Positions 18,105 to 57,901 of a stretch of 64,000 nt of DNA are shown piece after piece. The DNA is from Haliotis cracherodii (taxonomy: Eukaryota): assembly GCF_022045235.1 (NCBI RefSeq), contig NW_027266343.1, positions 52,824,001-52,888,000 of the forward strand. The letters run 5' to 3'. Numbering within the stretch: position 1 is the first letter of the stretch; each line of letters starts with the position of its first letter. Both the position numbers and the translations under genes were made by a program. The notes beneath the pieces were generated by a model, which worked only from the letters and a program-made list of their open reading frames with translations, did no database searches and was not told where the DNA came from.

Positions 18105-18175
18105 CGAGGTGTTACAGTGAGGCTTAACACTCTTGTGAACTGAATGGGAATCAATTCACTTACTGAATTCGCAAA

Positions 18176-19374: not shown

Positions 19375-19618
19375 CGATGTAAATAAAACTTGCATGTTTG
19401 CAGTCACGATGTAAATATTATGAAGGGTGATGACGTCAACATATGTATCTGTTTTCCCTCGCGTCCATGGCCCTGAATACGTGTATGACTGCATGTATAA
19501 ATGACACATTATATAGTTTAAATATTTGTAATGGTGTGGTAAACATATGTTGATCCAAAATAAAGACTGGATTAAGACTTTTCACGCAACTATATTTTAA
19601 ATGTGTAAATATTTTCAG

Positions 19619-24572: not shown

Positions 24573-24751
24573 GTATGTTGATATATATCAAATTATATGC
24601 ATGATTTATTACAAACATCGATATCTTAATCATGTATTTGCTATTGTTTTTGTAAATATACATAATTCTGTAAAAATATTAAATATTAATATTAATTGGA
24701 AATGTTAGATCTGATATTTTGTAATATAATATATATTTTGTATATTTTCAG

Positions 24752-30539: not shown

Positions 30540-32430
30540 TAGCTTCATATGATACCCCTGGGTACCTTTTCAAATGGCATACGTATTAATTATTACCATT
30601 ACCTAATTACTCTAATCTTTGCCAAAATATGTAAGGGATATCGATATCGTCCACTTTCTCCATACACCATTAAACTTGGGGTTCAAGGTTTGACACCAAG
30701 GAATCGCTTACATGCACCGAGGTGTGATTTCTCCTCTGAATCATATAGTTCCATACCCCAAATCTCGGCTCCATTTGGTAAAATTTAACTTAATTTTGTA
30801 TCGAATATTTAAAATTTGGTAAACAAAACTACCCTAAGTGGATTCCAATATTAAAATCTTTTTTCCTTTCATTGCAGCAGTAATTGCATGCAAAGTCCAC
30901 GACAGCCTGTTTGTAAACTACACACCTAGAAATTATGTGATGATACACATTCTATTTCATTTCCTTGGTAATATCATTTTTCTCTCTTAGATACAGTGCC
31001 ACATTTCTTGAAAACTATAGTTTTGGTTTTAATTGAGGTTTACCGGCAAACCCCATTTTTGACAATAATTTTCCAATTCATTAATTTGTTTTTGTAGACC
31101 AGGTATTGTGCTTGAAAGCATTACTATATCATCGGCAAATAGAAGGAGAAATATCTTTACTATTTCGGGGTGAAGCTGGATGCCATTATTTCAATTTATT
31201 TGGATTTGTTGTGCTAATTCATTAATAAAGAATGAAAATAGAAAAGGACTCAACATGCATCCTTGTTTCACACCAACGTTACTTTCAAACGTATCAGATA
31301 TAGTACCATTATATCGCACACAAACCTTTACACTATGACCCATATTGCACAACAACTTACCAATTTTACTACTAAGACCATGTGATTTGAAAAGATACCA
31401 TAATTTGTTTCTGTAAAGAGTCAAACGCCTTGGAGAAGTCGACAAAACGTACATAGAATTTTCCACCTTTCTTTGTCAGATAACTTTGTATCATTGACTC
31501 TGACATTAAATAAACTATCAATTGTAGAGCACCCTCTTCTAAAACCTGACTGAGCGTCATCAATTTTCTGAAAAGTCTTAGCCCAAAATACTATTCTTTT
31601 ATTTATGATATCAGTAAATATTTTACTAAAAATGCTTGATAAAACAATACCTCTATAATTGTTTATGTCATTCAAAGAACCTTGTTTGTGAAGTGGGATA
31701 ATGATTTTCTTCGGGAAATGATGTTTCAAGCATAATGTTAAATATAAGGGCCATGCATGAAATATGAATATCAGTAGACTTTTTAAAGAATTCTCCCATA
31801 GCGTTATCATATCCAGATGACTTTCTATTCTTAAGATGGTTAATACCCTCCTGTCGAGTACCTTTCGTGATGTTACATAATCATCATTATCTAATTCTGC
31901 TTGTTGCAAATTCAAAATATTTTTCTTTTTCTCCTTCTGGTGCAGAAAAAAGTTCTTTTAAATGCTCACACCAATCCTTAATATTTATATTATTTTATTT
32001 GTGCCGTTTTTTCCGAGGACCTTTAATTGTTGCCCAAAATGCTTTCGAATCGTGAATATTTTGTCCCAACAGGTCGGCTTATTTTCATAATACTCTGATT
32101 TCTTACGTCTACACATTTCATTATATTGATTACGAACACGATGATAGTTTTCTAGTGAGGCCAAATCTTTCTTTCTCCTAAATGTATTTAAACATCTTCA
32201 TATTTCTCTAGTTAAAGATTCACAGTCGATATCATACCGTGGCTCTATGTAGTTAATATTGCACGACCTTTTCTTCATATTCTCAGCAGCTCTGCATAAA
32301 GCTTTAGTAATGTATTGCACACCATCATTAATACTAGAAAATGCTGCATTTACTTCTTTTTTAGATAAGTCTACTATATCATCTGATGATAATTTCCCTG
32401 TGAAGTCTTGACATCGCTCGTTTCCATACA
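30540..32430 (-). mobile_element. Decayed LINE ORF2, reverse-transcriptase region (CR1/L2/RTE-X group)
   Basis: IPLHKQG...NNYRGI...QSGFRRGCSTID, FVDFSKAFDS, GVKQGCMLSPFLF and LLFADD (~31125-31148); many frameshifts. Confidence 0.9.
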
Positions 32431-35538: not shown

Positions 35539-37074
35539 TACTGAACCGCAAAAGAAACGTCACCATGAATAGATATGTGAGAAACCTTATTTGTTCAAAC
35601 ACTGTAAACATACTTTGAGACATATTAAAAATATGAAACTTGGCAAAACTGATCATCAAGCTTGACATTAAAGTGTCAAATGTTCTTAAAGTGAAACACG
35701 ACACTAGTGGCTGAGTAAATGGCATCAGAAGTCAGTATCTCGTGTGTCCGTCATGTGCATTGATGACTGCCGTGCAACGTCGATACATGGAATGGATGAG
35801 GCGGTTGATGAAGGCCATAGGCACTTGAGCCCACATTCTGGGGAACGCCTGACGCAGTTCAGCTGCAGCTGTCGGCCTTGGTCGGACATCATTCAGCCGT
35901 CTTTCAATCTCGCCCCACAGGTGCTCAGTGGGATTTAAATCGGGACTGAGGGCAGCCCACTGCATGGTTCTGATGCCATTCTGCTGGAGGAAGTCTCTTG
36001 TTGCTCTCGCAGTGTGGGCACGGGCGCTATCATGCTGGAACTCGTGGTTGCGGCGACGTGCCAAATGAGGTATGGCGTGTGGTCTCAAGACTTGATCAAT
36101 GTTGTTGTGACACCATTGCCTCTCCCTGGAACGATGTTCTGGAAGACCACAGGGCCGACCCTCTGTGCAACACCAATTCCACCCCACACCATGATGCTCG
36201 GACCACCCCACGAGTCTCTCAACAACACAAGCATCCGAATAACGTTTCCCACGGCGTCGCCAGACTCTCTCTCTGCCATCTGCTGTTTAGATACCATTAC
36301 GGCTCTCGTCTGAGAAGAGGACTCTTCTCCACTGCAGGTGGCGCCAATGCTGGTGCTGTGTTGCCCACTGAAGACGGTCCCGGCGATGGCGTGGTGTCAG
36401 AATGGATCCTCGGTGTGGCCTGTGACTGTGGAGGTGTCTGTTCGTCAATCGTCGACGCACGGTGTCAGCACTAATGTGTCGCAGGTGTGTCCTCATGGTC
36501 TGTCCAGCAGTTTCCGCAGCAGTAACAAAGCGTTGTTGAAGATGCTGTCGCACAATCTGACGATCCTGACGTCTGGTGGTGACCCTTGGTCTTCCACTAC
36601 GTGATCGGTCATCTGTAGTGTTGGTGGTCTGGTACCATTGCTGAAGCCTGAATATGGTCCTTACGTGGACTTGAAATGCATTGGCTACTTGCCGGGCGGT
36701 TTGTCCAGCTTGCAATCGTCCAAGGGCTTGGTGTCGCTGATTTCTTGTCAGTCTTGGCATGTGGTAGCAATTCAATAACGAATGAATGTTATCCGACCGA
36801 TCTGGGTGTATTTTTATAGGGCAAGAAATGGGGGAACGCATGCGCATTTCAATTTGCACGGAACTCACGTGCATCGAGTTACCACGGTCATTGCCGTGAT
36901 GCGTTTGGGCGATCGGTTTCATTGTCATATGCTTTGTTTTTTCATTATCAAATTTCCCTTTTCCGGACAAGGTAATGTAAAATTTTAGAAACTTTGACAA
37001 AAACTACCCAGATATTTAAATGACAACCTTTTATGCAATGTACAAGGGGTTGACGTTTCTTTTGCTGTTCAGTA
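35539..37074 (-). mobile_element. Full-length Tc1-family DNA transposon (~1.54 kb)
   Basis: TIRs TACTGAAC(C/A)GCAAAAGAAACGTCA at both ends (1 mismatch in 24), flanked by TA. Confidence 0.93.
35732..36760 (-). pseudogene. Tc1 DD34E transposase pseudogene
   Basis: MPRLT..., GRPRVTT, VLFSDESR, WGGI, FQHDSARAH and SPDLNPTEHLW (34 residues between the second D and E), split over several frames. Confidence 0.92.
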
Positions 37075-38472: not shown

Positions 38473-41098
38473 TGAAACAGTATGAACTCAGTCTTGGAGT
38501 ACTACACAATAACCTGCCTGGAACCCAAGTTTCAATGTATATAAAATCAGTGTATGTACATATATATATATGAGAAATGGTCACCAAAGTTGGATAACCT
38601 TTGGCCAATGACCATATATGTCAAAAAAGATTTTTTGAATGCAAATTTAGCGGCTAAATGATACGTACATTTTAAACGTCATATGGACATCGGATGACAC
38701 ATTCATTTCCTCACATGCATACATTTGGGAACCACTGTCCTATCGTGGGCAGATACCTGTTGAGATATGGTTAATATATATTCATTGAAGAGAGGTCACC
38801 GACCCATAGTTCACAACAGTTTATGTTATTCCAGGTGTAAGAAGTAATATTCATGTAAAGGAATATGAAACTAATTTTAATAGTATAAACATATATATGT
38901 AAGGATAATATGTAAGGATGTTGTGAAGTGAAAAATATGAATGCCTCGCGTAAGGGCCTGTCACCCCTAGCCGAGTTGGGTCGCCGGATTAAAGGTTAAA
39001 GATTACAGGCGCCGACGGCACTTTATCCTGCGCTGAAATACACCTTTTCGGTTACATCATTATTGGCTCACGTCATGAATCTGTTCAAATTACCTACCCG
39101 TGATCTAACATATCCTTAGTAACATCGTTCTATGATTCCCTTCTATCAAATATTGATCGGTGAAATAGTTTCGTTAAACTTGTCGGATAACTGAATATAA
39201 TTTCCTGAAATATGTCAACATGGTGTCAACCATCTCTCATGCCGCGGGGTTTTCCCCAAACGTATTCAAACGACTATGTACGTACCACAGCACCCATACA
39301 GTTTTCCGAGATGGGCGTTGGTGCCATGGGAATTATATATGTTATATCTGAGCAATCCGTGAATGGTTTCATAACCGCATGTAATACTGTTGCTCAGCGA
39401 AGGGCATTTTGAAAAATACTGCAGTCAAATAATACAACCGCTGTTTCGGCATCATCTAGTGCAACCAACTCAGTCATCAGTGCTAAGCATACTGTTTCAT
39501 GGCTCGCAGTTACCGCAATGAGCTAACGTTAGTAGTGGAAACAGAGTTGCCACTTTCAGGACAGAAAACACGTGAACTCACAAAAAACAGCAACACAAAA
39601 CTACGGCTATGTTTACGTGTGTTAGATCGGCCCCACAATGCACTAGTGGAATGTTTTGTGTCACGTGATTAAGGAGAAGAAAATTGATAAAAAAATGTTC
39701 AATATTTCTTATTGCTGCATGGGATTATGGATAATCACTCTGACGAAGTATACAGTCTCCGAGCCGACTAGTCCTTGTTGTATCACCTTAATGCCGAGCG
39801 CAAGGCAGGGTAACAAAAGTACTATCTTTTAACGTGTTTTGTATGGCGCGACGGGGGTTGGGGGGTTGCGGGTTGCCACCGATCTTGGCACTCCCTGAGA
39901 AGAAACTCCTACTTATAGTGATTAATATGTTGATTGAAATGAATGTGCATGCCTCTAGTTGATTAAAGGTGGAAATGGTGCAAGTTGGCCTTTTTGGTAG
40001 AGCATACAAAATTACAGCACTATTGTATTGTTCAGAAGCTGATAGGAATGGCACTTGTGCATGCTGTTGTGGGAGCTGTTCAGGTGATGTGGAAATAATC
40101 CATTCGCATTTGGTTCAAACAAAATTTTACGTCTTTTCAACCTACACGTATCAATTAAGGTAAGAAGATATGATATTTATGGACAGATACAGATATAATA
40201 GATGCTAGTATTAGATATTAATGGTCAATACTTCCATATATATTTGGAAAGGAGAATCGATCGATCTTAGCCCATCAACCATATTATGTGAGTACATAGG
40301 AATACTTGACATGTCATTCACATCGGTTGTATGTCATTACATAAGGGGTTGACAAAGTAATAGTAGAGGAAGCACTCCTTCAAGCAGTCAACGCTGGATA
40401 TAACCGCTGATCTGCTGGATGTAGAAGTATACACATCCTTATTTACAACAATAAAGCATGCTCATGGTTTGATTGTTTAATGTTCGTAGGAGAGTCAATA
40501 GAAGGAATAAGCACACTGCATTGACATTATATCATGGTTGTGATATATTAACCACCGTGAACAGAACAAATACACCGCCATGGAAACATCAGACTTCGAA
40601 TCTTCAACCAATGACCACATTTGCACAAGAATAAGTGGTCTCGTCGATACCTGAATTTCAACAAAAAATAATAATAAGTATAATAATACCCCACTAATAG
40701 AGCCCTAGCCGCATAACACCCTTGTGTTTTCAACACTAACGCTTGACCAAATGTCTCAACTGCAGCTGTTAAGTGTAATAATGACCCACTCATAGAGTGC
40801 TAATCGCGCAACAGAAGAATGCTTGTAGTAGATCCATTTATACAAGACAAGCATTGGGCAAAATGCCTCTTCCTCAAACATCTTGAATTGGACTTCGGGA
40901 ATATTGATGGCCATCACAAACCTTAAACACGTATTTATAGAGCCCAAAACAATCCTGTTGACTGCTGTGTTTACAAGTTAACACATATCTTTGTTCTAAT
41001 ACTTGGTGTTAACATCAATATTTCATGACCCCCTACTTTTTTTAAAAGAGTATATATAGTGAATGCTTACCAGAATCCTTTCGTGGATTCTGGAAACT

Positions 41099-41136
41099 CT
41101 AATAATGAGCTTTAATGTGGAATTGTACTGGCGATC
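41099..41136 (-). CDS. Temptin-like gene A, putative coding exon 3
   Basis: GTGACAG acceptor also seen in unit B (~46279); phase-1 reading gives (G)SPVQFHIKAHY*; weak polypyrimidine tract. Confidence 0.4.
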
Positions 41137-41640
41137 CTGTCACGTAGAAGCCGTTTCAACATCGTAGATTGTGATTAATGATCATCACAAGTCCATACAT
41201 ATCGAAAAGCATCACCGATGCTGTGAGATATCAAACAGTATTCACTCACTCTCGAAAACTCTAACTGGTAATGAAAGCGTTTCACGTTGCATGTGGTGAG
41301 GGGGAAAAAAAACCCCAAAACCACAACTAATATCATATGAATAGTTCGGAATACTGATAACAGCTTCATTCTTTGATTAAAATTATGTTTCGAAAACAAC
41401 TATTGCTTTAGAGAAATGCCAAAATATGGTCATAAACAATAAATAAGTTGGAAATATATTTCTAGACATAAATGAATTTGGACAATGCAGTTATTATTTA
41501 TATGTTACAGGCCATGGGACATACAGTTTTGCGCACTGGCCAAAGGTTACTATTTTTCGTTTTGACTTTTGACCGATCTCGAACATAGAAACAAAAGTAA
41601 GCTGAAAATACGTATGCTAGAATTCGACATAAGTACTGAC

Positions 41641-41791
41641 CAGGATGACCTGTGGGCGGCCAGACTGGCACAGTTCCAGCGCTCCATGTACACTGAGGGT
41701 CACCAAGCTCCTGGCCATTGGTAAATCCGTCGTTGTCAGAGTCCTTTTGACACAGAGCTACAGTCCACGTATGCGATGCAGCCTGGAAATC
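41641..41791 (-). CDS. Temptin-like gene A, exon 2
   Basis: TTTTCCCCAG|DFQAASHTWTVALCQKDSDNDGFTNGQELGDPQCTWSAGTVPVWPPTGHPG|GTCAGT; temptin-type DSDxDGxTNGxELGDPxCxW...HPG motif. Confidence 0.9.
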
Positions 41792-41934
41792 CTGGGGAAA
41801 ATACCAACGTTTACAAGTTACTGGTGACATATGATTTTAACATAGTTTCAGTATTATTCTAGCAACATAGCGACGAGTGACGCCAGGAACGGACATGGCA
41901 TTTTGGATAATACCTACAATTCAACTCTGGAAAG

Positions 41935-42216
41935 GACCGCCTCCGTTGTCTAGTGGTAGAGCGTCCGCCTGGAGAGCCGAGGGTCTGGGGTTCAATGCCC
42001 GGCCGCGTCATACCAAAAGACGTTATTAAATGGTGGCACTTGTTGTAACCCTGTCTGGCGCTCGGCATTAAGGGGCAAAAACAAGGACTGGTCGGCTCGG
42101 AGTCAGTATACTGTGTCTGAGTGGGGTATTCTTGTTAAACTGCGGCATGGTATCTCAGCGTGCTAGCACTACAAATCGGCATCAGTCGGGCTAGTCTAGT
42201 ACAAACAGCCACACAC
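41935..42216 (+). mobile_element. SINE family 2 in temptin A intron 1
   Basis: GACCGCCTCCGTTGTCTAGTGGTAGAGCG head and family-2 body. Confidence 0.9.
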
Positions 42217-42289
42217 CTGGAATGTCTGCTCGGATTGGCAAAATCAAAACAAAGGGACTTTGGTGAAGAAGTTTAACTTAGGCTTAATT

Positions 42290-42995
42290 CAATGATGGCC
42301 AAATAGCTAATTTCTTTCCACTGATTTACCCACCTAAACTGAAAGTAAAAGGGTCCAGTGAACCAGCCTCATCTGTTTCATATTTAGAAATAAGCATACA
42401 GCTATAGAGCGACAAAAATATCAACAAGAAAGTATGAACACACAATGCCATTTAGAAAGTTGTCAAATGTAACAAATGTTATATTTGGGATAACACTTTC
42501 TTGGTAAAGTGGAGAATCGCCTACTTTTTTGGGTTGAGTCCCGTCCGGGATTCGAACCCCACGACAAGAGGGATGATTTCAACTTTCCAACAGTCAACAT
42601 TTCCTTTATGTCGAGCAATATGCCAGCGACTCCAGCCTTTGCTGTCTACATTTCACAACTTCGGTACGATAGAGAGCATCACACGACTCTTGCTGAGAAA
42701 GGTGTTTGATCAGGCTTACAATATTCAAGGCATTTTTAAAGCTTTCAGAAAGTAAAATGACAGACATGTGGAGGACATTTCCAAATTTGACGCATCAGTG
42801 ACAGAAATGATGTCCAATGCAATGCCCAATTGACTTGACTTTGTATGTGTCTCTGACTGGTACCACCGGTGGGTCAGGATAGCTCACCTTTTCGCGAACA
42901 CATTAATGATTTGATATGGTCGGAATCGTACAACGAACTCTATTTAAGCAGACATTTCTTATGATTATGGAAATAGTCTTGTCGCTTTTATTTAC
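42290..42995 (+). mobile_element. Penelope-like retroelement 3' fragment
   Basis: DKRDDFNFPTVNISFMSSNMPATPAFAVYISQL; its 3' UTR is shared with ~12790-12875, 20880-21060 and 60230-60385. Confidence 0.78.
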
Positions 42996-43725
42996 CAGAA
43001 GCCTTCCGGATGCCAAACCTAAGGCTTTGATTACCCTTACTTCTCTCAGCGAGATATCGTGGAACGTACATCGCACAACACAACGTCCGCTGATTGTGTG
43101 TTCAAATCCCCAATTTTGCCCAAGTAAAGTTGGTCTGCGTTGTAGTCTTCACTATCCCACCTCTGTAAAGGCGGTCTGTGGGAAATTGAGTTTTGAAAAC
43201 CAGTGGTTTGATCCCCGCCGTTTGGTTACGATTACGACAAATCAGACAAGACGTCATTCACAATATGATCTTCCCCAAACGACTTATTGCCAATTGTATT
43301 TGTGGCACTGTGATCGTTGTGTGTATTCCTTGATACATATTGTAAATAGCCGGTCCTCAACTTCCACGACAAACATTCGCTGCTTATAAGGGGGGGGGGG
43401 GGTTATACAGGACGACACAATAACCAAATTGTGTTTAGTGTCAATCTTAACTGGATTAGGAGACAAAGCGATGACCCGACTCCTTACGACATGGTTAGCT
43501 TGCGCGAGTGAAATGCAGATTATATTTAGCTCACTTTCTTGGTAACCTAATGTATTAGTAGCTGTGGTTAGTCTTCCGGGCACGACAACTTTGTCGCCAG
43601 ACGTTTATGTAGTTGCTGAATCGCCATGTATGCATTATTAGTGAAATATTCCAAGATTAACAAAGTCTCACTTTCACTAATTAACTGAGATCAAGCATGA
43701 ATACAAGACTGATGTAGAATCTTAC

Positions 43726-43911
43726 CATTCCGAATGGGTTCAGGTTCTGTGCCCCTCCCGTGTTTGCGTCGTTGTGTCCAACTGCATTCCATATGAGATC
43801 TGAGTTACAAGGATGTGGCACCAGTTTGCCGTTGGGAATTTGATTTTGGTAAGGAGGCTTAGCAACCACAACAGCGATGACACACAACACGAGGGATAGA
43901 AAATGCAACAT
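43726..43911 (-). CDS. Temptin-like gene A, exon 1 (signal peptide + N-terminal half)
   Basis: MLHFLSLVLCVIAVVVA-KPPYQNQIPNGKLVPHPC...WNAVGH...LNPFGM|GTAAG; 186 nt, phase 0. Confidence 0.9.
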
Positions 43912-44754
43912 CACGATTGAGACTCCGTGGCTGTTCTGTTTTCAAGGCGTGCCCTTCAGTCGTTTTGTATAGGGTTGGCACGTGGTAATTAAGTGATAGT
44001 GTTTGGTCCAGATAGTCTTATCATAACACTGGGCCAATGGTCGTTCTTCAGTATTCACAATCTCAGCTGCATGTAGTCCACGCCTGTATAACACAAAATT
44101 ATCCTGACCGGTGTTCCACGCCGAACTGCCGTCATGTATATCAAATAATCTGAAATCAGGAATGATGACAACGATGGGCGTCCAAACTTCCTTTTGGTAA
44201 AATCAGAATATCCAGTGATCGTTACAAGAAACAAGAACATTTCATTATTTGTCGGTACCCATTGTAAGTTCTCCACGCTGCTATAGGACGAGGCATCGCG
44301 CGTGTGTGCCTGTCCTGGCATACTTTGCAGCAGTTGTAACAAGGATACTCCAGACACATTACACGGACTTCATGTCGACCAGTCCTTGTTTTATCCCTTT
44401 AATGCCGAAACCAACAAATATCATCTTTTAACGTCTTTGACGCAACCAGGAGGTTTAGCTACCGACCTTTATCATTTAAGAAATGATATGATAGTGTTAC
44501 TAATTTTCCTTTTAATATTTGTGAAATTGATGTTTATTTGTTTATTTAGTAAAGACAGGCAGGAGTGTGAAGGCCGCTACCAGGTAATGGAGATGGAAAC
44601 TGTGCACGTTAGTGAAGTTTTATTGGTAATGCATTATGCTACAGTTTTGTTTTATTCAGACATGTAAAGAAATAAGTCTTGTGGGGCGCTGTTCAGTTAA
44701 TGTGGAAACGATCTACAGGTTGCTGTTACAAGCTTGTCCTTCTAATATGATAGA

Positions 44755-44915
44755 ACGGTGGGGTAGTCTAGTGGTTAAAGCGTTCGCTCGTCAGGCCGAA
44801 GACCCGGGTTCGATTCCCCACATATGTACATTGTAAAGCCCCTTTCTGGTGTCCCCCGCCGTGATATTGATGGAATATTGCTAAAAGCGACGTACAACCA
44901 TCCTCACTCACGCAC
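44755..44915 (+). mobile_element. SINE family 1
   Basis: Matches 22029-22194; degenerate TSD TCTAAT(A/G)TGAT. A truncated minus-strand copy follows at ~45056-45122. Confidence 0.9.
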
Positions 44916-46764
44916 TCTAATGTGATTATGTAAGTAAACGACCTTTAATAATGTGGAGCAGATTTGTAGTGTAGTCCCCTGTCCACACCTTGCTCATGTC
45001 AACTATAGTTGCTTTGTTGCACTGTACAATATAATCCACTTCTTACCACATTAAGAGTGAGTGAGTGAGTATAGTTTTACGCCGCTTTTAGCAATATTCC
45101 AGCAATATCACGGCGGGGGACACGATACCACCTTAAGAGCTTAATCTGAGAAAGATAAACGGTACATGTTCGAGTCGTTTACATTAGGAACATAACCTAC
45201 AATGTATTGTTCTTGCAAAGTAGAGATATTTGATTTGATTGTGTAAAAATTGATATTTGAAAACCCACTCTACTTATTCGGTTTATTGTATATTTCAACC
45301 CACATGTATCAAATAGCTATAATTCTAAGGTAAGAATATATGGCATTCATGGACAAATGAGATATAATAGATGCTAGTCGGAGATCATTCCTGCAAACAT
45401 ATCTGGAAAGGACAATCGGTCAATCTTGTGAGTATGTGGGACTATTTGACATGCCATTGACAAAATCACGTGTTTCAAATGCTGTGAGTGTATGTCATAA
45501 CGGTTCATCTGCTGCCTGGGGAGGTATACATTTCCTTAATGACAACAGTACTCGCATACTCATAGTTTGATTGTTTAATATTCCTTAGAGAGTCAACATA
45601 ATGAAAGGAAACAATGTATTGACTTTATCTCATGATCTCATGAAAACGTTGTTTTTGTTATTGACAACACGTAACAAACACCGTCATGAAAGCATCGCAT
45701 ATTCGCGAATCTTCAACCAATGGCCCCATGTGCACAAGGATAACTGGATTCGTCGATGCCTGAATTATAACAATAATGATAATAAATAAGCATAACAATC
45801 CCCAAATTTGAGAGTGCTATCAGCATAACATTCGCGTCGCCCTGGCATGTATACAACACAAACAATGGACGAAATGTATCAATTATTAGGTGTAAAAATG
45901 CCCCACTTTTGAGCACTGGTCGGTAAATTTCAATGTGTGAGAATAACAATTCTTGATTATCCGCCGAAACAGATTCCATCTAGCATTGGGCAAAATAGCT
46001 TTGAAAATTATATAAATTTCAAAGCAATTTCATGTTAACAACGCAAGCATTCGACAAAATGGCCCAATCGTCAAGATATCGTGAAATGGACTTCATGATT
46101 AAAACACACCTGTTAACATGTTCTGATAGAGCTCCCAGAGATGTTGTTGAGTGCTATTTTAACAGTTCTCTAAATTGAGTTCATAGCAGAATCCTTCAGT
46201 GGATTCATTGGATTTGGTTTTGTACTGCTGTAATGGAGACCCTCCAGGTTTCCTTGTAAAACACGATTCAATTTCTCCCTGTCACCAGAAAAGCACCAAC
46301 AGTGATTAACACTACACATTACATGTGGCGAGAGAGGTTAAGTTCACTTGCTAAAAGCAAAAGGAATCTGACAAAAACAGTTAGGAATACTGGGAGACAG
46401 TATTAAAAAGACCATTCTCCTGATGTTGCATTGGGCACATAAATTTGCTTCTTCTTATATATCTTGTGAAAACATGAATTTAAACTAAGAGAAATGCCAA
46501 AATATGTCCATAAACAATCATTATATGATATACGTTGGACACATTTTTGTCAAATGAGTTTAATTTGGATAATTCAGTAATTGCAAATATTTGACTGACC
46601 ATGGGGCATCCAGTCTCGACCGCTGGCCAATGAACGTGAAGGCAATGGGACAACCACCAGCAATCAATTTGGCCAAAGTTTTCTATTTTTCGTGTATACC
46701 GACATAGTAAGCCGTCGAAAATAAAAACAGAAGTAAGCAGGAAATACGTATGGTAAAGACTGAC

Positions 46765-46915
46765 CAGGATGACCTGTGGCCGGCCAGACTGGCACAGTTC
46801 CAGTTCTCCATGTACACTGAGGGTCACCAAGCTCCTGGCCATTGGTAAATCCGTCGTTGTCAGAGTCCTTTTGACACAGAGCTTGAGTCCATGCGTGTCC
46901 TTCAGCCCTGAAATC
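46765..46915 (-). CDS. Temptin-like gene B, exon 2
   Basis: DFRAEGHAWTQALCQKDSDNDGFTNGQELGDPQCTWRTGTVPVWPATGHPG; 151 nt, AG/GT flanked. Confidence 0.9.
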
Positions 46916-47254
46916 CTGGGGAAAAAAACCCGTTTACAATGATACTGGTGACATATGGTTTTAACATACTTTCAGAACTATTCCAGCACAATGAACCCAC
47001 ACAAGAAACCGGAACTCCGGACTTCGGTATTTTACCTTCTTAGCTACACTGTTAGGTGTTGCACACATTTTTCTGCTGCCATTGGCATTAATCATAGATC
47101 GACGCAGATATTTTTGGATCAGTTATCTCAAGAAATCCTCATTGAGAGGAGCTTCCTATTCCAGAGAGCTCGTCTCCCGAGTGCCAAAAATAAAGTTCGA
47201 GTTCCTAACTTCCTTATCTGGCAAGTTCATGGCATCAGATCAAGTTCGTTTCGT

Positions 47255-47496
47255 TTCGTTTATTTGTTGTCTAACGTCGCAATCAGCAATATTCCATCAC
47301 AATGACGGCGGTCTGTAAATAATCGGATCTGGATCAGACAATCCAGTGACATCATGAACATCGATCCAAAAAGTTGGGATACGATGACATGCATCAACCA
47401 AGTCAGCGAGCCTGACCACCCGATCCCGTAAGTCCCCTCTTTCGACAAGCATGGTTTGCCGAAGACCAATTATAACCCGGTTCTTCATGAGTCCCA
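47255..47496 (-). mobile_element. SINE family 4 (Nin/Deu-domain-like)
   Basis: GGGATCGGGTGGTCAGGCTCGCTGACTTGGTTGATGCATGTCATCG on the minus strand, shared with 58772-59041. Confidence 0.8.
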
Positions 47497-47889
47497 TCAG
47501 GTCATGCATAACGTCCGTTGATTGTATGTACGAATCCAAGTTTCGTTCAATGTGTCAACATGGAGAAGTCAACACAAGAGATGATATCCATCCACCAATC
47601 CTTGAACCCATACGCACTCGCACACTCGTCCGCAAACAACCCAGTGGATGACGTGATAACTCGCCCTGGTTAGTAGTTGATCTACTCAGTCAGTATACCA
47701 TTCCCAATATCACCAAGTGTAAGTGGGTGGTTCCGTAAGATATGAAACTATTCTGGAGTTGTACTGGTAGGGAGGAAGAAGTGAGTTTTGTTTCGGCATC
47801 GGTACAGCGAAGGACACCAAAATGGTTCCACACGTTGAAACGCGCGTACTTTTTGTGTGTGTTTATTCAATTCCTGAATTGGTTTTCTT

Positions 47890-48050
47890 CCACTCACTCA
47901 CTCACTCACTCACTCACCACCCAAACACCGATTCACTGACACATACACTCACCCATTCACTCACCAACCGAAACCCACTCACTCGCTCACTCACCTTTCT
48001 CTCACTCACTCACTCACTCACTCACTCACTCACTCACTCACTCACTCATT
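47890..48050. repeat. (ACTC)n microsatellite
   Basis: Imperfect tetranucleotide run. Confidence 0.9.
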
Positions 48051-48454
48051 TATTCGCTTACTCACAAACTCTCATACACGAAAAATCAGCAATTAAACAA
48101 TTAAACAATTGGTGATGTTAACGAACGACGATGAGAGAACAATGTTGTTCAGGCACCTTGGCTTGTAACATAAATTTAGAGACGACTCTCACAATGCCAG
48201 GAACATCTATCTGTATTAAAAGATGGAAAAAATATGCCACTTCTTTCGAAGTCAAGTTTAAAGATGTAAATATAGATAGTATGTAGCTAACCTTGTTAGT
48301 ACAATCATATTGTATCAGTATTGTAAAATATTTTCAAGTGAAGGCTTAATCGATTTTTATTCAGAATACTACAATCTTTCAACATAAACAAATTATAACT
48401 TTCAACAAATGTACTAAGATCAATCATAAAGACAAGACCTAAGAAGAATTATAC

Positions 48455-48640
48455 CCGTCCGAATTGATTCAGGTTCTGTGCTCCGCCCAAATCAGCATTG
48501 GTGTGTCCAACAGCATTCCATATAAGACCTTTGTTACAAGGATGGGGCACCAGCTTGCCGTTGGGGATTTCATCTTGATAGGGTGGCTTAGCAACGACAA
48601 CAGCAACGACACACAACACGAGGGACAGGCGGAGCAGCAT
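48455..48640 (-). CDS. Temptin-like gene B, exon 1
   Basis: MLLRLSLVLCVVAVVVA-KPPYQDEIPNGKLVPHPC...LNQFGR|GTATAA; 186 nt. Confidence 0.9.
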
Positions 48641-50501
48641 CTTGATTCTCCGGCAAGGACAAGAGTGCAACGGCATAACAAGGCCTGTTTTTCGGCCTTT
48701 ATCATCGCGTAGGTTGCTGTTCACGTGGTACTAAACTGATAGTATCTTGTCCCGATGGTCTTATCGCAACAGAACCACGTGCACATAACACTGGGCCTTT
48801 TCCGTTTTTCGGTATGCATTATTCCAGGCAGATTGTAGTCGACTTCTATATGCCATACAATCGTTGCACGGTATACGAAAAATAGAATAAAATGACAAAA
48901 AACAATAGAATAAACGGAATATTCATCATTTGAACGGAGAGCCGATCACGTCCAGAAGTCCTACCCGTTGTTGTAACATATGTGCTGTCTGCATCCAGAT
49001 GGCTTCACATTATTCTGATGGAAAAACAGAGTGAGTTTAACGCCGTTCTGAAAAGGATCATGGGTTTATCGAGGCGTGTCAGCTTAAAGCCATATTTATT
49101 GTCACATAAACATGCTGTTTGGCAATGTAATTACCGTTGAGGTTAAGGTGCATTGCTTAAAGTTAAAGATAAGGGCTCACGGTGAAAATGTTGATGGCCT
49201 TGTTATCAGGGGTGTAAACTTATCATGACAACCTTGGCTTCATGACTTGACATGCCATTTCTAGGACAGACAATTAGGACGACCAGCGGAGCGACATTGT
49301 GACTCTGTGATAATGTAAATCCTCACTGTCTGCAACTTGACAGGTTGTTTTTTTGGTATTTATGTGAACATTTGCACCTGGTCCCGAATGTTACGGGATA
49401 ACAGGACCCCAGTGTTAATAATTGTAGTCAACCGTATCGTGTTGGTGAGCTAAATGTCCTTTATATGAATCCAACCATGTCTACACTTTTGTCATAATGA
49501 ACGTTATGGAATAAATTTGGAATACCTACGAATCAAATGTACAAACTATATAAACCAGGTATCGTTCTTTGGAATCGCTTTAGGTTGTATAGTAAAATCT
49601 TTCAAAACAGTTCTCATTACGCGTTTGTGTGTCTAGTTGTATCTGTGCGTGGGCAGATCGAGCGAAGGCAGATGCAGGAATTTGAAAGGGTGGTAACTGC
49701 GGGTTACCCTATTTATGAAGTTTAACAAACACACATGATAGAAAGACTGACACCTTTACGTTTGCCTCGTGGGGGCTGTTCACATAATGTGGGTAACACA
49801 CCTATTGCAGTTACAAGTACGTCGATCCAAATGTGATTACTTGTCTTTGTAAATGTTTCAAAGAATGGTAATTGGTAATGATGTGAGAACTATTCTTGCA
49901 CCACCAGTAAAGCTTAACCACTCAAGATGTTTAGCAACAATGATCAAACATAATTTTTCCATCGGGACATGTTGATGTACTGTGCAATGCATTCAACTTC
50001 TTTTATCGATCAAGTGTCCACCATCTAAGCTAGCTTCACGACTACAACTTTCGTGATTGTAGTAAATTAGCGAGGGGAACATTCGTCTGTGTTTTCAGTG
50101 TAGAACGGTGTTATATTTAGTAACTGAAACCAGACACTACATCTAAATATATATTTCAGCTGTTCAATTTAAAAGTAAAACGTAACTATATAGTTCTCTA
50201 CCTACCTGAAAATATAAGTCATTGTGGGACAAATAACTATACACGATATGCCAGACTAAAATATTGAATAAAAATAAATATTTGGAAAGTACAATCGATC
50301 GATGTTAACCCATACCGTTTGACATGACTATTTGAGATGTCAGTTCTCGTGTTGCATAATCTATCAGTGTCTGTTGTTACATAAAGATTAATAGCGGAGG
50401 GGGACGCTGGAAATAACCACTGATCTGCTGACTGCAGAGGTACAAGATCCTCCTCGCATAGCCATAGTTTGATTGTATTATGTTATCAAGATCATGAATA
50501 G

Positions 50502-50733
50502 TGAATGAATGAGTGAGTGAGTGAGTTGGGTTTGACGCCGCTTTTAACAGTATTCCAGTTAAGGAAAGCCAGAAGTGATGCAGGTCTCAGACGTTTACCA
50601 CTTCGGTGAAACCAACGAGCACGGGTATGGTGCTGACAAACCTAGAAACATAATTGGGGCGAACCGGGATTCGAACCCACAATCATAGGTTTCTGGTGTG
50701 GCCTCTTGCGACTGGGCTACCCCTGACCCCAAC
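50502..50733 (-). mobile_element. SINE family 3, internally deleted
   Basis: TSD ATCATGAATAG at 50491-50501 and 50734-50744. Confidence 0.88.
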
Positions 50734-51300
50734 ATCATGAATAGAAACATTGTTCTGACATTATGGCATACACTGATATGTACAAGATGTGTTCTTTTTT
50801 ACATACTGCAGAGTGAAAGAATGAGTTTTCTGAAGTTTTGAAAAGGCGTTAACAAGGCAAAATGATTAGAGATGGTCATTTATGGAGTTATTGTCACTAT
50901 TTGCGTTTGTTATTCTCTCAAAGATGTTTCGTTTTAAACGTTATAGTTGTTTTTTATACGCCATTTTTGTTACTTGACCAGCGTGTATTATTTCCATTCA
51001 AACAGCGGTCTCCTAGTTTTCAAGAATATTTTTTGTTAAAGTTTATTTTGAATGTAATCATATCTAAATGTATGAACATTTTTTTTCGTGTTTCGAGATC
51101 CTAAATATTTTGGGATGCTTTTGTATATATTTTATAAGATTTTTCAAACACGAAAATACTTTGTAAGTCACAAATACTAAGGGTTGTGAACCGCAACTGT
51201 GGCTCAGGTAGGGAGAATTTACGTTTCAAGGTTTTGCATTTGTAATGAAACAATTTAATTTTCCGGTATACAAAAAATGCAACTATACAAAGAGTATATA

Positions 51301-51456
51301 ATAAATAGGATATTCCATGTGTCGGGTGAAATATCACGTTTCTCTGAATTCGTGACGGGGAAAAAGAGATATTTTCTTTCGTGACTACGCCACACCCCGT
51401 CCTGCGATGAGAGAAACATAATATTCCACTCGACACATGAAATATCCTCTATTTAT
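51301..51456. mobile_element. Hairpin MITE
   Basis: ~35-bp inverted ends ATAAATAGGATATTCCATGTGTCGGGTGAAATAT / ATATTCCACTCGACACATGAAATATCCTCTATTTAT. Confidence 0.75.
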
Positions 51457-51816
51457 TAACCACCATCATCAGAACAAATACAGCGCCATGAAAACATTCG
51501 ACAACCGCGAATCTTCAGCCAAAGGCCACGTGTGAACAAGGATAATTGGACTCGTCGATCCCTGAAATTAAAAACACAATAATACTAATACTTACACTAA
51601 GAAGATGAAGAATATGAAGAAGATGAAGAAGAAGAAGGGCCTGATGATGAACGCCTCGCCTAGAAAGGGAGGATTAATTCCCCCGAACTAAATGTACATC
51701 GACCAGTTAGGGCTTACCTCCACAAATCTGGTAATATTTACTGTTGGGTTACAGATCAATTTGAAGACAATCATCGTTCAAGTCCGCAGCCCAGTCAGCC
51801 TCCCTCTGGTATACAA

Positions 51817-51988
51817 GGGCGGTCGGGTAGCCTAGGGGTTAAAGCGTTCGCTCGTCATGCCGAAGACCCGGGTTCGATTCCCGACATGGGTACAATGTGT
51901 GAAGCCCATTTCTGGTGTCCCCCGCCGTGATATTACTGGAATATTGCTAAAAGCGGCGTAAAACCATATTCACTCACTCACTCACTCA
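51817..51988 (+). mobile_element. SINE family 1
   Basis: TSD CTCTGGTATACAA on both sides. Confidence 0.92.
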
Positions 51989-52544
51989 CTCTGGTATACA
52001 AACCAACCAAAGTGGCGAAGGCACTTACCCCAGGGGGAGGCACATAAGTTTGCGAAAGTAACAGGACGGGCAAAAAGACTACGAATAAATGGCAAATTAT
52101 TGACGATCGGAAGCATTCGGACAAAGCCAAGCCAATACATGAAAACTGACAGAGCAGACTATTCGCGACCATCCCCGGCGACTGAAGTTGTATATGCGTT
52201 GTGAATCTCATGAGCTAACTGCCAACATTCGTCAGGCGCCTTTGCATGAAAACAGCAGCAGACCCGAACTTGCAAATGAACGTTCGCATTGTTCTCCCTA
52301 AATTACCTGATGTAGTTGCCAGTTGGCCTTGAAGATTTGGAAAAATATAAAACATAACACTAGACATCAAAAGAGAGAATTCTAAATCAAATTCTTGATT
52401 CTCTGAAGGCAAAGTTAAAGGTTGTGTACAGAAAGAGAAAAGAAAGTAGGATAAAAAAATAATTTCATAAACAAAATATACTGTTCAGATCGAGTGAAAT
52501 GTGTTTTGAATGGCAATTAAATGTAATATTTTAGTACAGTCTTC

Positions 52545-53150
52545 TACATGCTTGTAGTTTTGACACAAAGGTCTAGCCATCGTACGACCCAGTATATGTA
52601 GAAGGAGTCATGGAAAAGGATGAATACAAAATTGTTTGGAATAGGCCCGTGTACAGCCTCAGGCGTATCCGGGCCAACAAACCTGATACATCTTTGACAA
52701 ACTTTGATAAATCCAAAGAAATCATTTAAATCATTGAATTTTCTGTCCCTTTTGACACTAATGTGATTGACAAGATTGAGGAAAAACATGGCAAATATCC
52801 GGATCTCGCTTTTGAAATGTCACACTTGCATCCCAAGTACCAAGTTGTCCGACCAATTGTTCTCGGTGCCTTAAGTTTGGTACCGCCCAATCTGTTGACT
52901 GACATTGGGAGAGTACCCGGGTTTGCTGCCAGGAATACAGCCCTTCTGACAATCTGGGTAATGCAGAAGGCTGCAGTGTTGGGGAGTCGTCACATTCTCC
53001 GAAAAGTTCTGGGTGGGTTTGACCAGGCAGCGGTTTTTGGGAGAAATCCCATTCGCTGTCTAGGCTGCGTGTAGAGGGGGCAAGGGCTCTGAGCTGATGA
53101 TGAGCCTAACCAGCCTGATTGTGCCAGGAACCCTCTTTGCTGCATTTTTC
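52545..53150 (+). mobile_element. 3' fragment of an RLE-type (R4/NeSL/R2-like) non-LTR retrotransposon
   Basis: IRANKPD...IEFSVPFDTNVIDKIEEKHGKYPDL...PIVLGALS...MQKAAVLGSRHILRKVL, a PD-(D/E)xK restriction-like endonuclease C-terminus. Confidence 0.8.
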
Positions 53151-53555
53151 ATTTTAATCTTACATGATAATGATAACCTTACATTGATGTCAAACTGAGA
53201 CCATGTGTGATAATGAGTTTGTTTTGGTGTTGCTGTACCGAAGAAACTTACATCAAACTTAGTTCGGAATATCCTAACAAATGACCAAAACTTCGGATGT
53301 TGCGTCAGATAGTAATATGAAAATAGATTGTCTATTGTGTAAAATATAATTGAAATTATGCCAAAATATGGTCTTAAGCAATAAATAAATGAAAAAGTGG
53401 GGAATAAAATTGTAGTCGGAGATAAATTGAATTGAATGAATTTTAGTATTTTTCTGAAATTAGATAAATTTTGACATATCAGTTATTACAAAGATGTTAA
53501 AGGCAATGGAACGTCCAGTTTCGAATGCTTGGTAGAATTCGACATAAGTACTGAC

Positions 53556-53706
53556 CAGGATGACCTGTGGCCGGCCAGACTGGCACAGTTCCAGCGCTCC
53601 ATGTACACTGAGGGTCACCAAGCTCCTGGCCATTGGTAAATCCGTCGTTGTCAGAGTCCTTTTGACACAGAGCTTGAGTCCATGCGTGTCCTTCAGCCCT
53701 GAAATC
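53556..53706 (-). CDS. Temptin-like gene C, exon 2
   Basis: DFRAEGHAWTQALCQKDSDNDGFTNGQELGDPQCTWSAGTVPVWPATGHPG; 151 nt, AG/GT flanked. Confidence 0.9.
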
Positions 53707-53774
53707 CTGGGAAAATACAAACGTTTACAATGATACTGGTGACATATGGTTTTAACATACTTTCAGAACTATTC

Positions 53775-53831
53775 CTACTAGTCCTTTTCACACAGAGCTA
53801 CAGTCCACGTATGCGATGCAGCCTGGAAATC
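53775..53831 (-). pseudogene. Truncated extra copy of temptin exon 2 (A-type) in gene C intron 1
   Basis: TTTTCACAG|DFQAASHTWTVALCEKD**. Confidence 0.85.
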
Positions 53832-54144
53832 CTGTGAAAATACAAACGATTTCATGACATATAGTACACCTATCATATTCACATCACCGAGAAGCAATAC
53901 TCACTCACTCATGGTCAAGTTGCAAGATGTAAATATAGGTTATATAGCGCTTGCTGTGTTGGTATCGTAATGCATGAGTAGCTGCACGAAGTCTAAGCAT
54001 CAACAGAATTGTCGTAAGGTCTTTGACATGGACACTAAATCGCCATTAATGCATTATCAGTGAAATCTTTTAAGATGAATGTACAATTTCTAACTTTAAT
54101 TTACTAAGATGAATCATAAAGACAAGACTAAAGTGGAATTATAC

Positions 54145-54330
54145 CATTCCGAATGGGTTCAGGTTTTGTGCCCCTCCCAAATCTGCATTGGTGTGTCCAA
54201 CTGCATTCCACACAAGACCGGAGTTACAAGGATGCGGCACCAGTTTACCGTTTGGGATTTGATCTTGGTAGGGAGGTCTAGCTAGTACAACAGCGACGCC
54301 ACACAAAACGAGAGACAGGTGATGCAGCAT
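54145..54330 (-). CDS. Temptin-like gene C, exon 1
   Basis: MLHHLSLVLCGVAVVLA-RPPYQDQIPNGKLVPHPC...LNPFGM|GTATAA; 186 nt. Confidence 0.9.
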
Positions 54331-56005
54331 TGTGATTCAGAACTACAATGTCACGCTTTCTCGCAAGGCGTTCCTACAAGTCGTTATGATTACACAGGTT
54401 ACTGTTCACGTGGTACTAAACTGATACTTTGGTCTAGATTGTTTTATCGCAACATGTGTGAAAGGTCAACTTTTTAAACAGACAACTGTCTTTATCTCAA
54501 GATCTTAAAGTCCATCCCAAAATTAATCTGGAAATTGAACACGTTGGATTCTCTCGCTGGACCACCCGTGCAGAAACTATCAAATTAGATTTTCATCTTC
54601 AAAGAAGGACACCAGTGCTCGCTGACTTGGTTGATGCATGTCATCGATCCCAATTGCGTGGATCGATGCTCATGATATTAATCACTGGATTGAGACAATA
54701 TGGGCAAAGGTTCCTTTACACTGGTCTTGTCGTTAAAGAGACAATCTAAATGAGATGTTTCCGACGGACGAGTAGACGGACTTTCACCATTTACAATACG
54801 TTGTACTAGTTATACAACAGAACAATACTATTAAAAATGAATTAAAGATAAATATAAGCGACGTTACCATTTATAATTATAAATATGATTCCGACAGTTG
54901 TCTACATCAAAAGCATGTGTTTCTGAATCACAATCTAACACGATGGTGAAAAGGCAGCAAAGCTATTCCAAACAAATCTATTTTATTTTGACGGCACATC
55001 ATCAGAAAAAATAATCTTTTGATGTTCTACCTCTGACGTGCAGCGCGTGCCCATATCCCGCGGAACGGTCTATTCGTAAAGGTACACGACCTTGAATTGG
55101 GTCTTGGTGAGGAGTAAGACTTGAAGGGGGATAGGTAAAAAAGTACGACCGAGGTCCGAAACGCCCGACACGCCCGGTGGCTCAGTGGGGGAACATGGAA
55201 GGTTCATGTGAAAACATCTTGACTTTTAACCGTCAACGTCAGTGCGAATTAATCAATATAGTTCCAAGGAAAACCCCTAAGCAGGTCTGATTCAAAGTAA
55301 AGTCTCAAGTGTTTCTTGCAGGGAAGTTCTGGGAAGCTAAGACTACCCTGCATATATACAAAGTATATCCCGGCTTTCAACTTGATTGAGTCGAAGTTCT
55401 TGCTCAAAGGCGTAAACAAAGTGATGACGTCACCGTAGATTTGTAAACCCAAATACAATGAAGCCCCAATCCCCGCCTAAAACCCACAGGCTTAAAAGCA
55501 CGCCGTCCATTGGTTGGAGTATGGATGACGCGACAGCTCAGGGAGGCATCGAATGGCATTGACTATACATCACGGTGCGCGGCAGCTTCGTCACTGACGG
55601 TATACCATCTTCAGTGATGAGGATGAGTATCGCTTCAATCTCGAAGGACATGGGTTCTTCGATCACAATAATACCGAGTATTTAAATTAATTTTGTGAAT
55701 ACGCTTTTGGGTATAAAATGTGGAAAAATGTAGATTATGGGTTCCACACCGCAGTGTATCCGGAGAACAGAATTGTGTTGTTACTTGTTGGGGCATGTTG
55801 GTTGATAGATTCAAATGTACACGTTCGTTTGTTTGCATTCAGGAAACGGCTCCCTTGACTGCGACATGGCTCATTTAGTACACTAGGCTTTCCAAAGCTA
55901 CTTTCAGTTTAATATCCTTTTCGATGGTATACGAAAACATTAAAAATTAAATCAAAGTAATCAATTAATCATCTATTTCAAAACAAGTGTTGCAATCATC
56001 TGTTG

Positions 56006-56158: not shown

Positions 56159-56941
56159 TTGTATAGTCAGCAAACATCGTTCTAGTTGTATTATATTCAC
56201 AAGAGAAACAAGCAAAGTGATCTAGTGAGGTTGATTGATCAAACCAATTATGAAATTAATGACATGACAAGTTGCTTTCAAAGGGGTTTGGAAGAGACAG
56301 TATCAAGACATTTTGCTTAATTTTACAGTGTTCGCTGTAGAGTTTTAGAGTGTGACAGGTGTTTCATTATATCAACCTGTCGTGCCCATGCCAACACGCA
56401 CGCTCCATAAATATTTCATTATATATATGCATGTTAACAGTAGACACCCAGCCTGTGGTGACATGTGACGTCTTGCTGAGCTTGCACAGGGCAAAATAAT
56501 GTAAATGAGGTTATTTTCATATTGTTGTATAACGGCATGGGTTGTATAAAACGGTATGTGAATGTATACAAAATGTAATACTGGGATGAACTAACGGGTC
56601 ATCTCTACAATATTGTATTGAATTCAATTGTATTCAAATACACCTGATATGTCCGACAAAAAATAATACACATTGCTTGAACATTTATTATTCAACATTA
56701 TTTGTTTGTTTGTTTTTTGTTTACCTCCGCACTCTGCAACACTCCGGTTATACCCAACAACCTTACATTATATTTATGATATATATTCTTTTCATTACAG
56801 ATCCGTATGGTGAAGCGTTGGCTGTCAGCGATGCAGGGTTTCACATACAATACACGCAGACCTTAACGTTATCACGGAAGGTGGTAAAGATATAAGACAC
56901 GGAACGTTGGAGATATTTTTCTGACACACGTGACAAGGAAA
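56159..56941. repeat. Segmental duplication copy 2 (paralogous to 11-1155)
   Basis: Direct collinear match with substitutions and deletions. Confidence 0.9.
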
Positions 56942-57901
56942 AGTTGTATGTGTGTATTTGCAATATTTACAAATTTGCTTTTGACAGACCAAGATAGCCC
57001 ATACTTCAATAAAGACAACAAAACCATAAGGAAATTTCTTTTGATTAATAAGATATGTGTTCTACTAGAATTAGTAAAGTGAACATGCAACGGTAGAAAT
57101 GACTGAATTTGCTCAGGTCATTCATATTTTTCATGGTACGCATGGCCCATGTCAAAAGTACACAACTAAGGTCTATGTCAGCTCAGATGAGTTTGTTTTT
57201 TGTACCAAATGATAGTTTTTATTAACAATCTATAATTATGCCTTTGTCGTATATTGGTCTGGGGTGTAAATTTAATGTATACCAGCTAGCACTGACACAT
57301 TCGTGTAGATGGATCATCACAGTCTGAGTAATGGTATTATCTTTAAAAAGTTTTTAATTGGTATAAATATATTTTGGGTTATTATCTGGTTTCTAAGATA
57401 CCCCAACACACACATGTGTGTTATGTCAGATCCGCGTGAAGTACCTTTACTTCGTTATCAAGGGATAACTGACCAAAAAAATACAGGTTGCTAGAAAAAA
57501 CATGGATTCCTCAATAAACATTCACAACCATATTATGGTATATATACCACAAATTATTAACGCAGAGATATATAAAATTCGAACGAATTATTTGGAAATT
57601 TGTCACCGAAAAGAAAGCTATCGTAAAAAGGTCAACATTAAATACTGACATAATTATTGTTTATGAAAACTTAAAGTTATAAATATTATGGGTTTTAAAT
57701 AACCTAAATGGGTGACTTACATATATTCTGGTTTATCTAACCTGAAAGAGACTAGTATGTTGCTCCCACACAGTTTAATCAGTTGAAACTATTTTTAACA
57801 CATCGTTGGTACTCAACTACATGTGTTTTCATTCAGTTGATAAGATTGTGATTCTTCCCGTTTCTTAATGCCTTAAATTTGAACGAGTTTTGAATATTAA
57901 A

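Follow-up and report, generated by a model that had tools for sequence, protein, structure and literature searches.

Three tandem genes on the minus strand of a 64,000-nucleotide (nt) stretch of Haliotis cracherodii DNA (the window: positions 52,824,001 to 52,888,000 of contig NW_027266343.1, RefSeq assembly GCF_022045235.1) encode stand-alone temptin proteins. That these genes form a temptin-like array is practically certain. Temptins occur in molluscs, annelids, oomycetes and bacteria; to our knowledge, no member has a solved structure or an agreed biochemical function. By profile comparison, the temptin domain is homologous to bacterial surface domains with a CxxCH motif. A tentative proposal, set out below, is that the three proteins may bind haem non-covalently, with His46 and the N-terminal α-amino group as ligands.

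Organization of the gene array

The three genes, named A, B and C, have their ATG codons at 54330, 48640 and 43911, respectively, so that neighbouring ATG codons are 5690 and 4729 nt apart. Each gene has coding exons of 186, 151 and 47 nt (Table 1), and all six introns have GT-AG boundaries. In a six-frame search of the window, the DSDNDGFTNGQELGDP motif occurs exactly three times, always on the minus strand. The product of each gene has 127 residues, with cysteines at positions 10, 35, 76, 96 and 121. The short exon 3 contributes the fourth cysteine of the mature protein and the stop codon. The pairwise identity among the three proteins is 79-87%.

An earlier note, made from the letters of the window, had described three minus-strand genes with a 186-nt exon 1 and a 151-nt exon 2, arranged in units of about 5 kb. 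The GT donors, the AG acceptors and the ATG spacing bear out this description, except that a gene of two exons is incomplete, the 47-nt coding exon 3 having been overlooked in each case. Homologous downstream flanks had also been reported. They are present at all three sites, with the TGGAAAG..AATCG motif near 40245, 45403 and 50283, and 40156-40268 matches 45326-45427 at 73% in self-BLAST. Part of what had been taken for flank is, however, exon 3 and the 3′ untranslated region.

The proteins agree letter for letter with the RefSeq temptin-like entries XP_071090843.1 (A), XP_071091030.1 (B, with 12 extra N-terminal residues) and XP_071090291.1 (C). All three genes are therefore already in RefSeq, through automatic annotation, and are new members of a known family. 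Close relatives are found in H. rufescens, H. rubra and H. asinina.

Temptin domain and protein features

Each of the three proteins matches the Temptin_C profile, PF24784, over model positions 2-98 of 98, with a score of 121-123 bits (cut-off 27, E about 1e-35). The model is divided between two exons, with positions 2-44 on exon 1 (E 2e-9 to 4e-9) and positions from 46 onward on exon 2 (E 3e-19 to 5e-19). This full-length match, together with the RefSeq identity, confirms the temptin assignment of the earlier note. The family is large, comprising 3515 clusters at 50% identity in a profile search with E up to 0.001. The ESM Atlas contains matches to temptin clusters only and none after these are excluded, and a sequence search of the PDB with a window protein gives no match (best E 0.052).

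The first 17 residues of each protein are hydrophobic, form a helix (residues 2-16) in the predicted model and place an Ala at position -1, as in a signal peptide. The cleavage site was taken from this residue pattern, not from SignalP. The proteins are thus predicted to be secreted as mature products of 110 residues, in line with the earlier estimates of about 17 residues for the signal peptide and about 110 for the mature product. The four cysteines of the mature proteins, C18, C59, C79 and C104, are enough for two disulfides, which we take to be C18-C104 and C59-C79 by way of Aplysia numbering. The DSDNDGFTNGQE loop is a canonical DxDxDG calcium loop of 12 residues with Glu at the last position. 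It is located between two short helices in the predicted model (predicted local distance difference test, pLDDT, 87.9) and would be expected to bind calcium. The proteins have 10-12 acidic residues, compared with 3-7 basic ones. DSDND, which is present in A, B and C, agrees with the DSDxD calcium-motif criterion used in PMC10075465. (Papers are cited by PubMed Central, PMC, number.)

Several residues are highly conserved in the family. Among 175 domain sequences, which include near-duplicates, His46, Cys76 and Cys96 are each present in 173, His111 in 161 and Cys35 in 123. Like the temptins of Aplysia and Biomphalaria, A, B and C have a signal peptide, one complete PF24784 domain, DSDxD, four mature cysteines with a short tail, and no further domain. 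In the Biomphalaria proteins named temptin, the mature cysteines are C18, C57, C77 and C105, a layout that A, B and C follow. The Haliotis proteins differ from the Aplysia and Biomphalaria temptins in a two-residue insertion before N.FG and in a Lys or Arg at the mature N terminus. A domain tree was built with 163 rows, after 20 of the 175 domain sequences had been left out for want of an anchor motif and 8 bacterial sequences had been added. The seven Haliotis sequences form one clade in this tree, with a support of 0.999. Deeper branches are not settled, and therefore no orthology or direction of transfer is claimed; this applies also to orthology between the Haliotis clade and the snail pheromones that have been tested.

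Stand-alone genes and their transcripts

In many other members of the family, the temptin domain is the N-terminal part of a copper monooxygenase (PF24784 followed by PF01082 and PF03712). In the H. cracherodii genome, exon 2 has 33 matches and exon 1 has 29, with 59 exon-wise PF24784 matches, at about 30 loci. Of the 33 exon-2 matches, 20 are followed on their own strand by a PF01082 exon no more than 20 kb away: none of the six on contig C80 and 20 of the 27 elsewhere. When four fused proteins were used as tblastn queries, no catalytic exons were found in the window or in six neighbouring 10-kb stretches (L001-L006). The same search found catalytic exons in three of four control stretches (L007, L009 and L010), and the fourth ended near its first such exon.

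Transcript-like contigs from four runs of four studies, chosen from 16 runs guessed to be RNA, were mapped on 39800-55000; the runs carry no tissue labels and possibly come from related species. At least three of the six introns are seen spliced, with contigs from all four runs. Intron 2 of gene C (990 nt) is spliced in X1 and X7. Intron 1 of this gene (1934 nt) is spliced in all four runs, the match having one changed letter in X2, X3 and X7. Intron 1 of gene B (1539 nt) is spliced in X3. Expression, the absence of which the earlier note had considered fatal to its proposal, is thus indicated for genes of the array. Among the 15 matches listed, with 647 further ones, there is no joint for the introns of gene A or for intron 2 of gene B, which is not evidence of absence.

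The contigs also define transcript ends. The X1 contig of gene C carries 23 non-genomic A residues at 40462, 14 nt past ATTAAA, and the X7 contig stops at the same base. Contigs of two runs (X3 and X7) stop at 45560 in gene B. For gene A, an X1 contig covers 54144-54395 with no differences and stops at the exon 1 donor; the end of its transcript is placed by the stop codon, AATAAA and the RefSeq model. Because no catalytic exons are nearby and the transcripts of B and C end soon after exon 3, A, B and C are stand-alone temptin proteins. The earlier note had reached the same view, which the tblastn negatives and the ends of B and C now sustain. Its argument from missing DOMON exons is uninformative, since in lophotrochozoan temptin-monooxygenases the temptin domain stands where DOMON would (PMC2762978).

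Two other origins of the contigs were rejected. A retrocopy would add to the genome matches, of which there are only three close ones per exon. The joints 45758-41640, 45758-53555 and 53705-48454 do not call for trans-splicing, as they are consistent with gene B orthologues in which exon 2 is similar to that of another copy.

The N-terminal domain of the monooxygenase hybrids is 44-55% identical to A, B and C, and a phase-1 intron after HPG is common to both. The Cys two residues past HPG, which occurs in 101 of the 175 domain sequences, is in contrast an Asp in A, B and C. Intron 1 also differs in position: in A, B, C and two further genes on C80, it directly follows the FG-x codon, whereas in three fused loci it lies several codons further on. 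These two further genes (L001 and L002; G000:C80:52069288-52080500) are divergently oriented, are 0.8 Mb from the array and have no monooxygenase exon. One of the pair has a short terminal exon of the array type, and one matches RefSeq XP_071090746.1 in type. The temptin-copper monooxygenase genes form a large expansion on G000:C5 (7-39 Mb), C4 and C1. Other fusions occur in the family: with a monooxygenase and cytochrome b561 in P0129, with a C-type lectin and dermatopontin in P0168, with a pectinacetylesterase in P0105, and behind immunoglobulin domains in P0097.

Evolution of the array

The copies of the array arose by tandem duplication within Haliotis and are under purifying selection. 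In the mature part of exon 1, the nonsynonymous divergence (dN) is 0.09-0.13, compared with a synonymous divergence (dS) of 0.50-0.73. In exon 2, dS is 0-0.11 (Fisher p 3e-6 for A/B and 0.008 for A/C and B/C). Uninterrupted identity in and around this exon extends over 115, 103 and 78 nt; in 20,000 trials simulated at the exon-1 rate, the mean was 19 nt and the longest run 65 nt. Exon 2 of gene A is B-like up to nt 110 and C-like thereafter. Exon 2 has thus been homogenised among the copies by ordinary gene conversion.

Intron 1 of gene A contains an extra piece of exon 2, which is identical to gene C at 46 of 47 nt and to A or B at 35 of 47. This C-type piece is followed by an intron end and exon start of the B type. 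The simplest reading would be that a B-derived tract was copied into the original exon 2 of gene A by imprecise conversion, which left a decoy acceptor behind. Use of this putative acceptor, at 53831, would give a truncated product of 79 residues.

Bacterial relatives with a CxxCH motif

The entry point to the bacterial relatives is P0028, a protein-search match in which CxxCH stands where temptin has VGH. The bacterial set consists of the best 80 of at least 359 confirmed relatives, among at least 601 candidates from bacterial and archaeal genomes (loci L011-L090). CxxCH is present in 79 of the 80, a proportion that is biased upward because the ranking favoured relatives similar to a query that itself has CxxCH. 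On a profile from which P0028 was left out, all 80 reach 40-89 bits, and each of the 72 aligned bacterial domains matches PF24784. Profile-profile comparison gives a probability of 99.6%, with the bacterial His aligned on His46 and the first Cys on Cys35. A PDB search with the bacterial profile returns calmodulin loops only (best E 4e-4), and no conserved Met or second His is found behind CxxCH in the 72 domains.

The bacterial proteins share with A, B and C the PNG, N.FG, W and DSDxDG.TNG.EL.DP elements, the histidine, the first cysteine and the cleavage register. They differ in having CxxCH and long surface-display tails and in mostly missing the C76-C96 pair, whereas A, B and C have C-x10-H and are free. 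Many of the bacterial homologues presumably have surface-sorting tails, as read from sequence patterns at their C termini. At L059 (3013-6285), a temptin-like domain heads a bacterial protein with ten CxxCH motifs. A link between temptin and bacterial CxxCH proteins was not found in the papers searched.

The cleavage register is a common feature of both groups. Nine places before the PNG proline, all 78 anchored bacterial sequences have Ala, Gly or Ser (2 of the 80 lack the anchor); among the eukaryote-type sequences, 157 of 162 have one of these residues or Cys. On either side of this position, such residues occur in 1 and 10 of the 78 bacterial sequences and in 5 and 26 of the 162 eukaryote-type ones. 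The residue right after the fixed small residue varies. The predicted mature N terminus is therefore fixed in register, with a variable side chain.

A possible haem site

In the proposed mechanism, the two disulfides would close in mature A, B and C, Ca2+ would occupy the DxDxDG loop, and haem would be held without a covalent bond between His46 and the free N-terminal amine. The products would then serve as small haem or redox proteins outside the cell, not as dedicated pheromones. The wider form of this proposal is slightly more doubtful: animal temptins in general may be haem proteins that descend from a bacterial surface cytochrome, having lost the covalent attachment, kept the histidine and taken the N-terminal amine as sixth ligand.

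A fixed N-terminal register with a variable side chain is what would be expected if the backbone amine has a role. The near-invariance of His46, the homology with the bacterial CxxCH domains, one of which heads the protein with ten such motifs, and the presence of temptin, copper monooxygenase and cytochrome b561 domains in one relative, P0129, also count for haem. Ligation of haem by a His and an N-terminal amine has precedents in cytochrome f, CooA and PefR (PMC8044140). The ligands in cytochrome f are Tyr1 and His25; those proposed here are mature residue 1 and His29. The likeness is confined to the ligand pair and is an analogy only, since no sequence or fold match between these proteins and A, B and C was found.

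Several points weigh against a haem site. A, B and C have C-x10-H in place of CxxCH; covalent haem is therefore excluded, and it is non-covalent binding that we infer. No report of haem in any temptin was found in the literature searched, most subscription journals being outside it. Neither of the two predicted models matches a solved structure, cytochromes included, in Foldseek and VIA searches, although small, loop-rich models match poorly and the result indicates neither a new nor a different fold. The ranking bias in the CxxCH count of the bacterial set has to be allowed for. The fixed N terminus can reflect folding alone, and His46 and His111 could be copper or zinc ligands or structural residues. 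The mature N terminus is Lys or Arg in A, B and C, and Tyr, Phe or His in most eukaryote-type members. Finally, PMC10691727 describes DOMON as binding haem in CYBDOM proteins and none in dopamine beta-hydroxylase. Because the DOMON of the latter is haem-free, the replacement of DOMON by temptin was rejected as strong evidence for haem.

Alternative functions

The proteins may instead be attractants, borne by water or mucus, as the earlier note suggested: an abalone would release them with its mucus or gametes and others would sense them, in the manner of temptin in Aplysia and Biomphalaria. This role is rather unlikely, though it would be compatible with haem binding; the calcium loop and the disulfides would keep the proteins stable in seawater. 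Aplysia temptin is released with egg-cordon pheromones (PMC11940790, PMC8995041, PMC10075465), and recombinant B. glabrata temptin attracts snails (PMC8995041, PMC10075465). The short four-cysteine layout is common to the Biomphalaria proteins named temptin, and spliced transcripts are found in runs of several studies. The Haliotis clade is, however, not joined to Biomphalaria temptin in the tree, and the low dN/dS gives no sign that the proteins diverge as fast as species signals often do. The genome has a single attractin-like match, a borderline one (28.2 bits; cut-off 25, genome E 0.0024) in an 80-residue frame without Met or signal peptide, in an exon-wise search for proteins that diverge fast. 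PMC10075465 itself doubts that attraction is the purpose of all temptins.

A role in the shell is slightly less probable again. The proteins, acidic and binding calcium, would belong to the fluid from which the shell forms or to its organic matrix and would act on the growth of carbonate crystals. Both the canonical loop ending in Glu and the excess of acidic residues agree with this role. According to papers that cite it, a study by Peng in 2021 reported a part for temptin in the formation of the mussel prismatic layer. The mantle candidates of bivalves include temptins (PMC11464482), and the nacre of Haliotis laevigata contains a tyramine beta-hydroxylase/temptin-like protein (PMC6003135). 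This nacre protein, however, has an Arg/Gly-rich disordered C terminus that is missing in A, B and C and is probably another paralogue; no match was found in the 12 of 27 supplementary files of PMC6003135 that were searched. The domain is also conserved in oomycetes and bacteria, which have no shell, and mineralisation is therefore not its basic function.

Other temptin roles, including shell formation, have been described, and B. pfeifferi has 13 temptin-like genes (PMC11940790, PMC8995041, PMC10075465). Temptin is listed in an infection table of H. discus (PMC4835058), in expression lists of Littoraria (PMC8070887) and in the Phytophthora secretome (PMC3091767). In PMC8158898, it appears in the reference list only.

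In a further, improbable reading, the proteins would bind no haem, the conserved histidines would bind copper or zinc or be structural, and the proteins would serve as general secreted adaptors in mucus or defence. His46 and His111 are both highly conserved in eukaryote-type members, the second site being mostly Asn in bacteria. The first residue is His in 17 of 162 members, and most paralogues are fused to copper enzymes. The expression of snail temptin shifts upon infection (PMC10075465). Such a putative metal site, however, leaves unexplained the N-terminal register shared with the CxxCH bacteria.

The three units are very improbable as truncated or misassembled copies of temptin-monooxygenases: the PF01082 exon behind so many exon-2 matches, the near-identity of exon 2 between copies and the broken extra exon in gene A might suggest such remnants, but the idea is largely refuted by intact frames, a terminal exon of their own with stop codon and poly(A) site, purifying selection, a divergence of 18-30% in exon 1 and introns, and orthologues in three other Haliotis species.

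Features of the array and the window

Table 1. Coordinates of the temptin-like genes, their flank and the attractin-like match (window positions unless a contig is given)
Feature	Coordinates	Strand	Remarks
Gene A exon 1, coding	54145..54330	-	186 nt; signal peptide, PNG motif, first mature Cys, conserved His46; identical to RefSeq XP_071090843.1
Truncated extra exon 2 in gene A intron 1	53778..53831	-	Own AG acceptor; 17 codons, then TAG
Gene A exon 2	53556..53706	-	151 nt; DxDxDG calcium loop, two Cys, HPG; mosaic
Gene A exon 3, coding	51515..51561	-	47 nt; last Cys and stop; AATAAA at 51457
Gene B exon 1, coding	48455..48640	-	186 nt; RefSeq model XP_071091030.1 begins 12 codons further upstream
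Gene B exon 2	46765..46915	-	151 nt
Gene B exon 3	45560..45759	-	Coding 45759-45713; ATTAAA at 45579; contig ends at 45560
Gene C exon 1, coding	43726..43911	-	186 nt; identical to RefSeq XP_071090291.1
Gene C exon 2	41641..41791	-	151 nt
Gene C exon 3	40462..40650	-	Coding 40650-40604; ATTAAA at 40481; poly(A) site 40462
Duplicated downstream flank (TGGAAAG..AATCG block)	40156..40268	-	Past gene C poly(A) site; homologous to 45326-45427 and about 50280-50300
Attractin-like borderline match (L091)	G000:C15:1190142-1190279		Adjoins repeat

The window contains several other features. Two tandem inhibitor-of-apoptosis genes are located on the plus strand at 18167-20189 and 23851-25316, each with two BIR domains followed by a RING domain. 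Their RING exons are 97.5% identical and their BIR exons 81%, which suggests exon-wise conversion. An 84-bp tandem repeat at 9739-11507 (21 copies, 98%) gives a minus-strand open frame of 617 codons in which each unit has a Cys-Cys pair; this frame scores 54 bits on Galaxin_repeat PF24748, possibly through repetition alone. On the minus strand, there is also a Tc1/mariner transposase copy with two open stretches (35735-37003) and a reverse transcriptase fragment with a weak RVT_1 match (31424-31957). Minisatellites of 41, 44 and 51 bp occupy 1385-4413, 6668-7291 and 15939-16443, respectively, and the 41-bp array aligns with its own reverse complement in self-BLAST. Homologous blocks with 87-95% identity are found at the window start (11-1159) and just upstream of gene A (56159-56945), beside a run of N.

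Implications

The array itself is ordinary: its genes were annotated automatically and belong to a family that has about 30 loci in the genome. Its products are useful as test proteins, being stand-alone, 110 residues long, free of glycosylation and easy to express. An attractant role, if true, would be relevant to the control of spawning in farmed and declining abalone. Haem binding, if true, would provide one mechanism for a pheromone, for a shell protein and for a large family of monooxygenases. Under the wider proposal, what sea slugs use as a pheromone would be a secreted haem protein, and the temptin domain would be the built-in electron relay of many lophotrochozoan copper monooxygenases.

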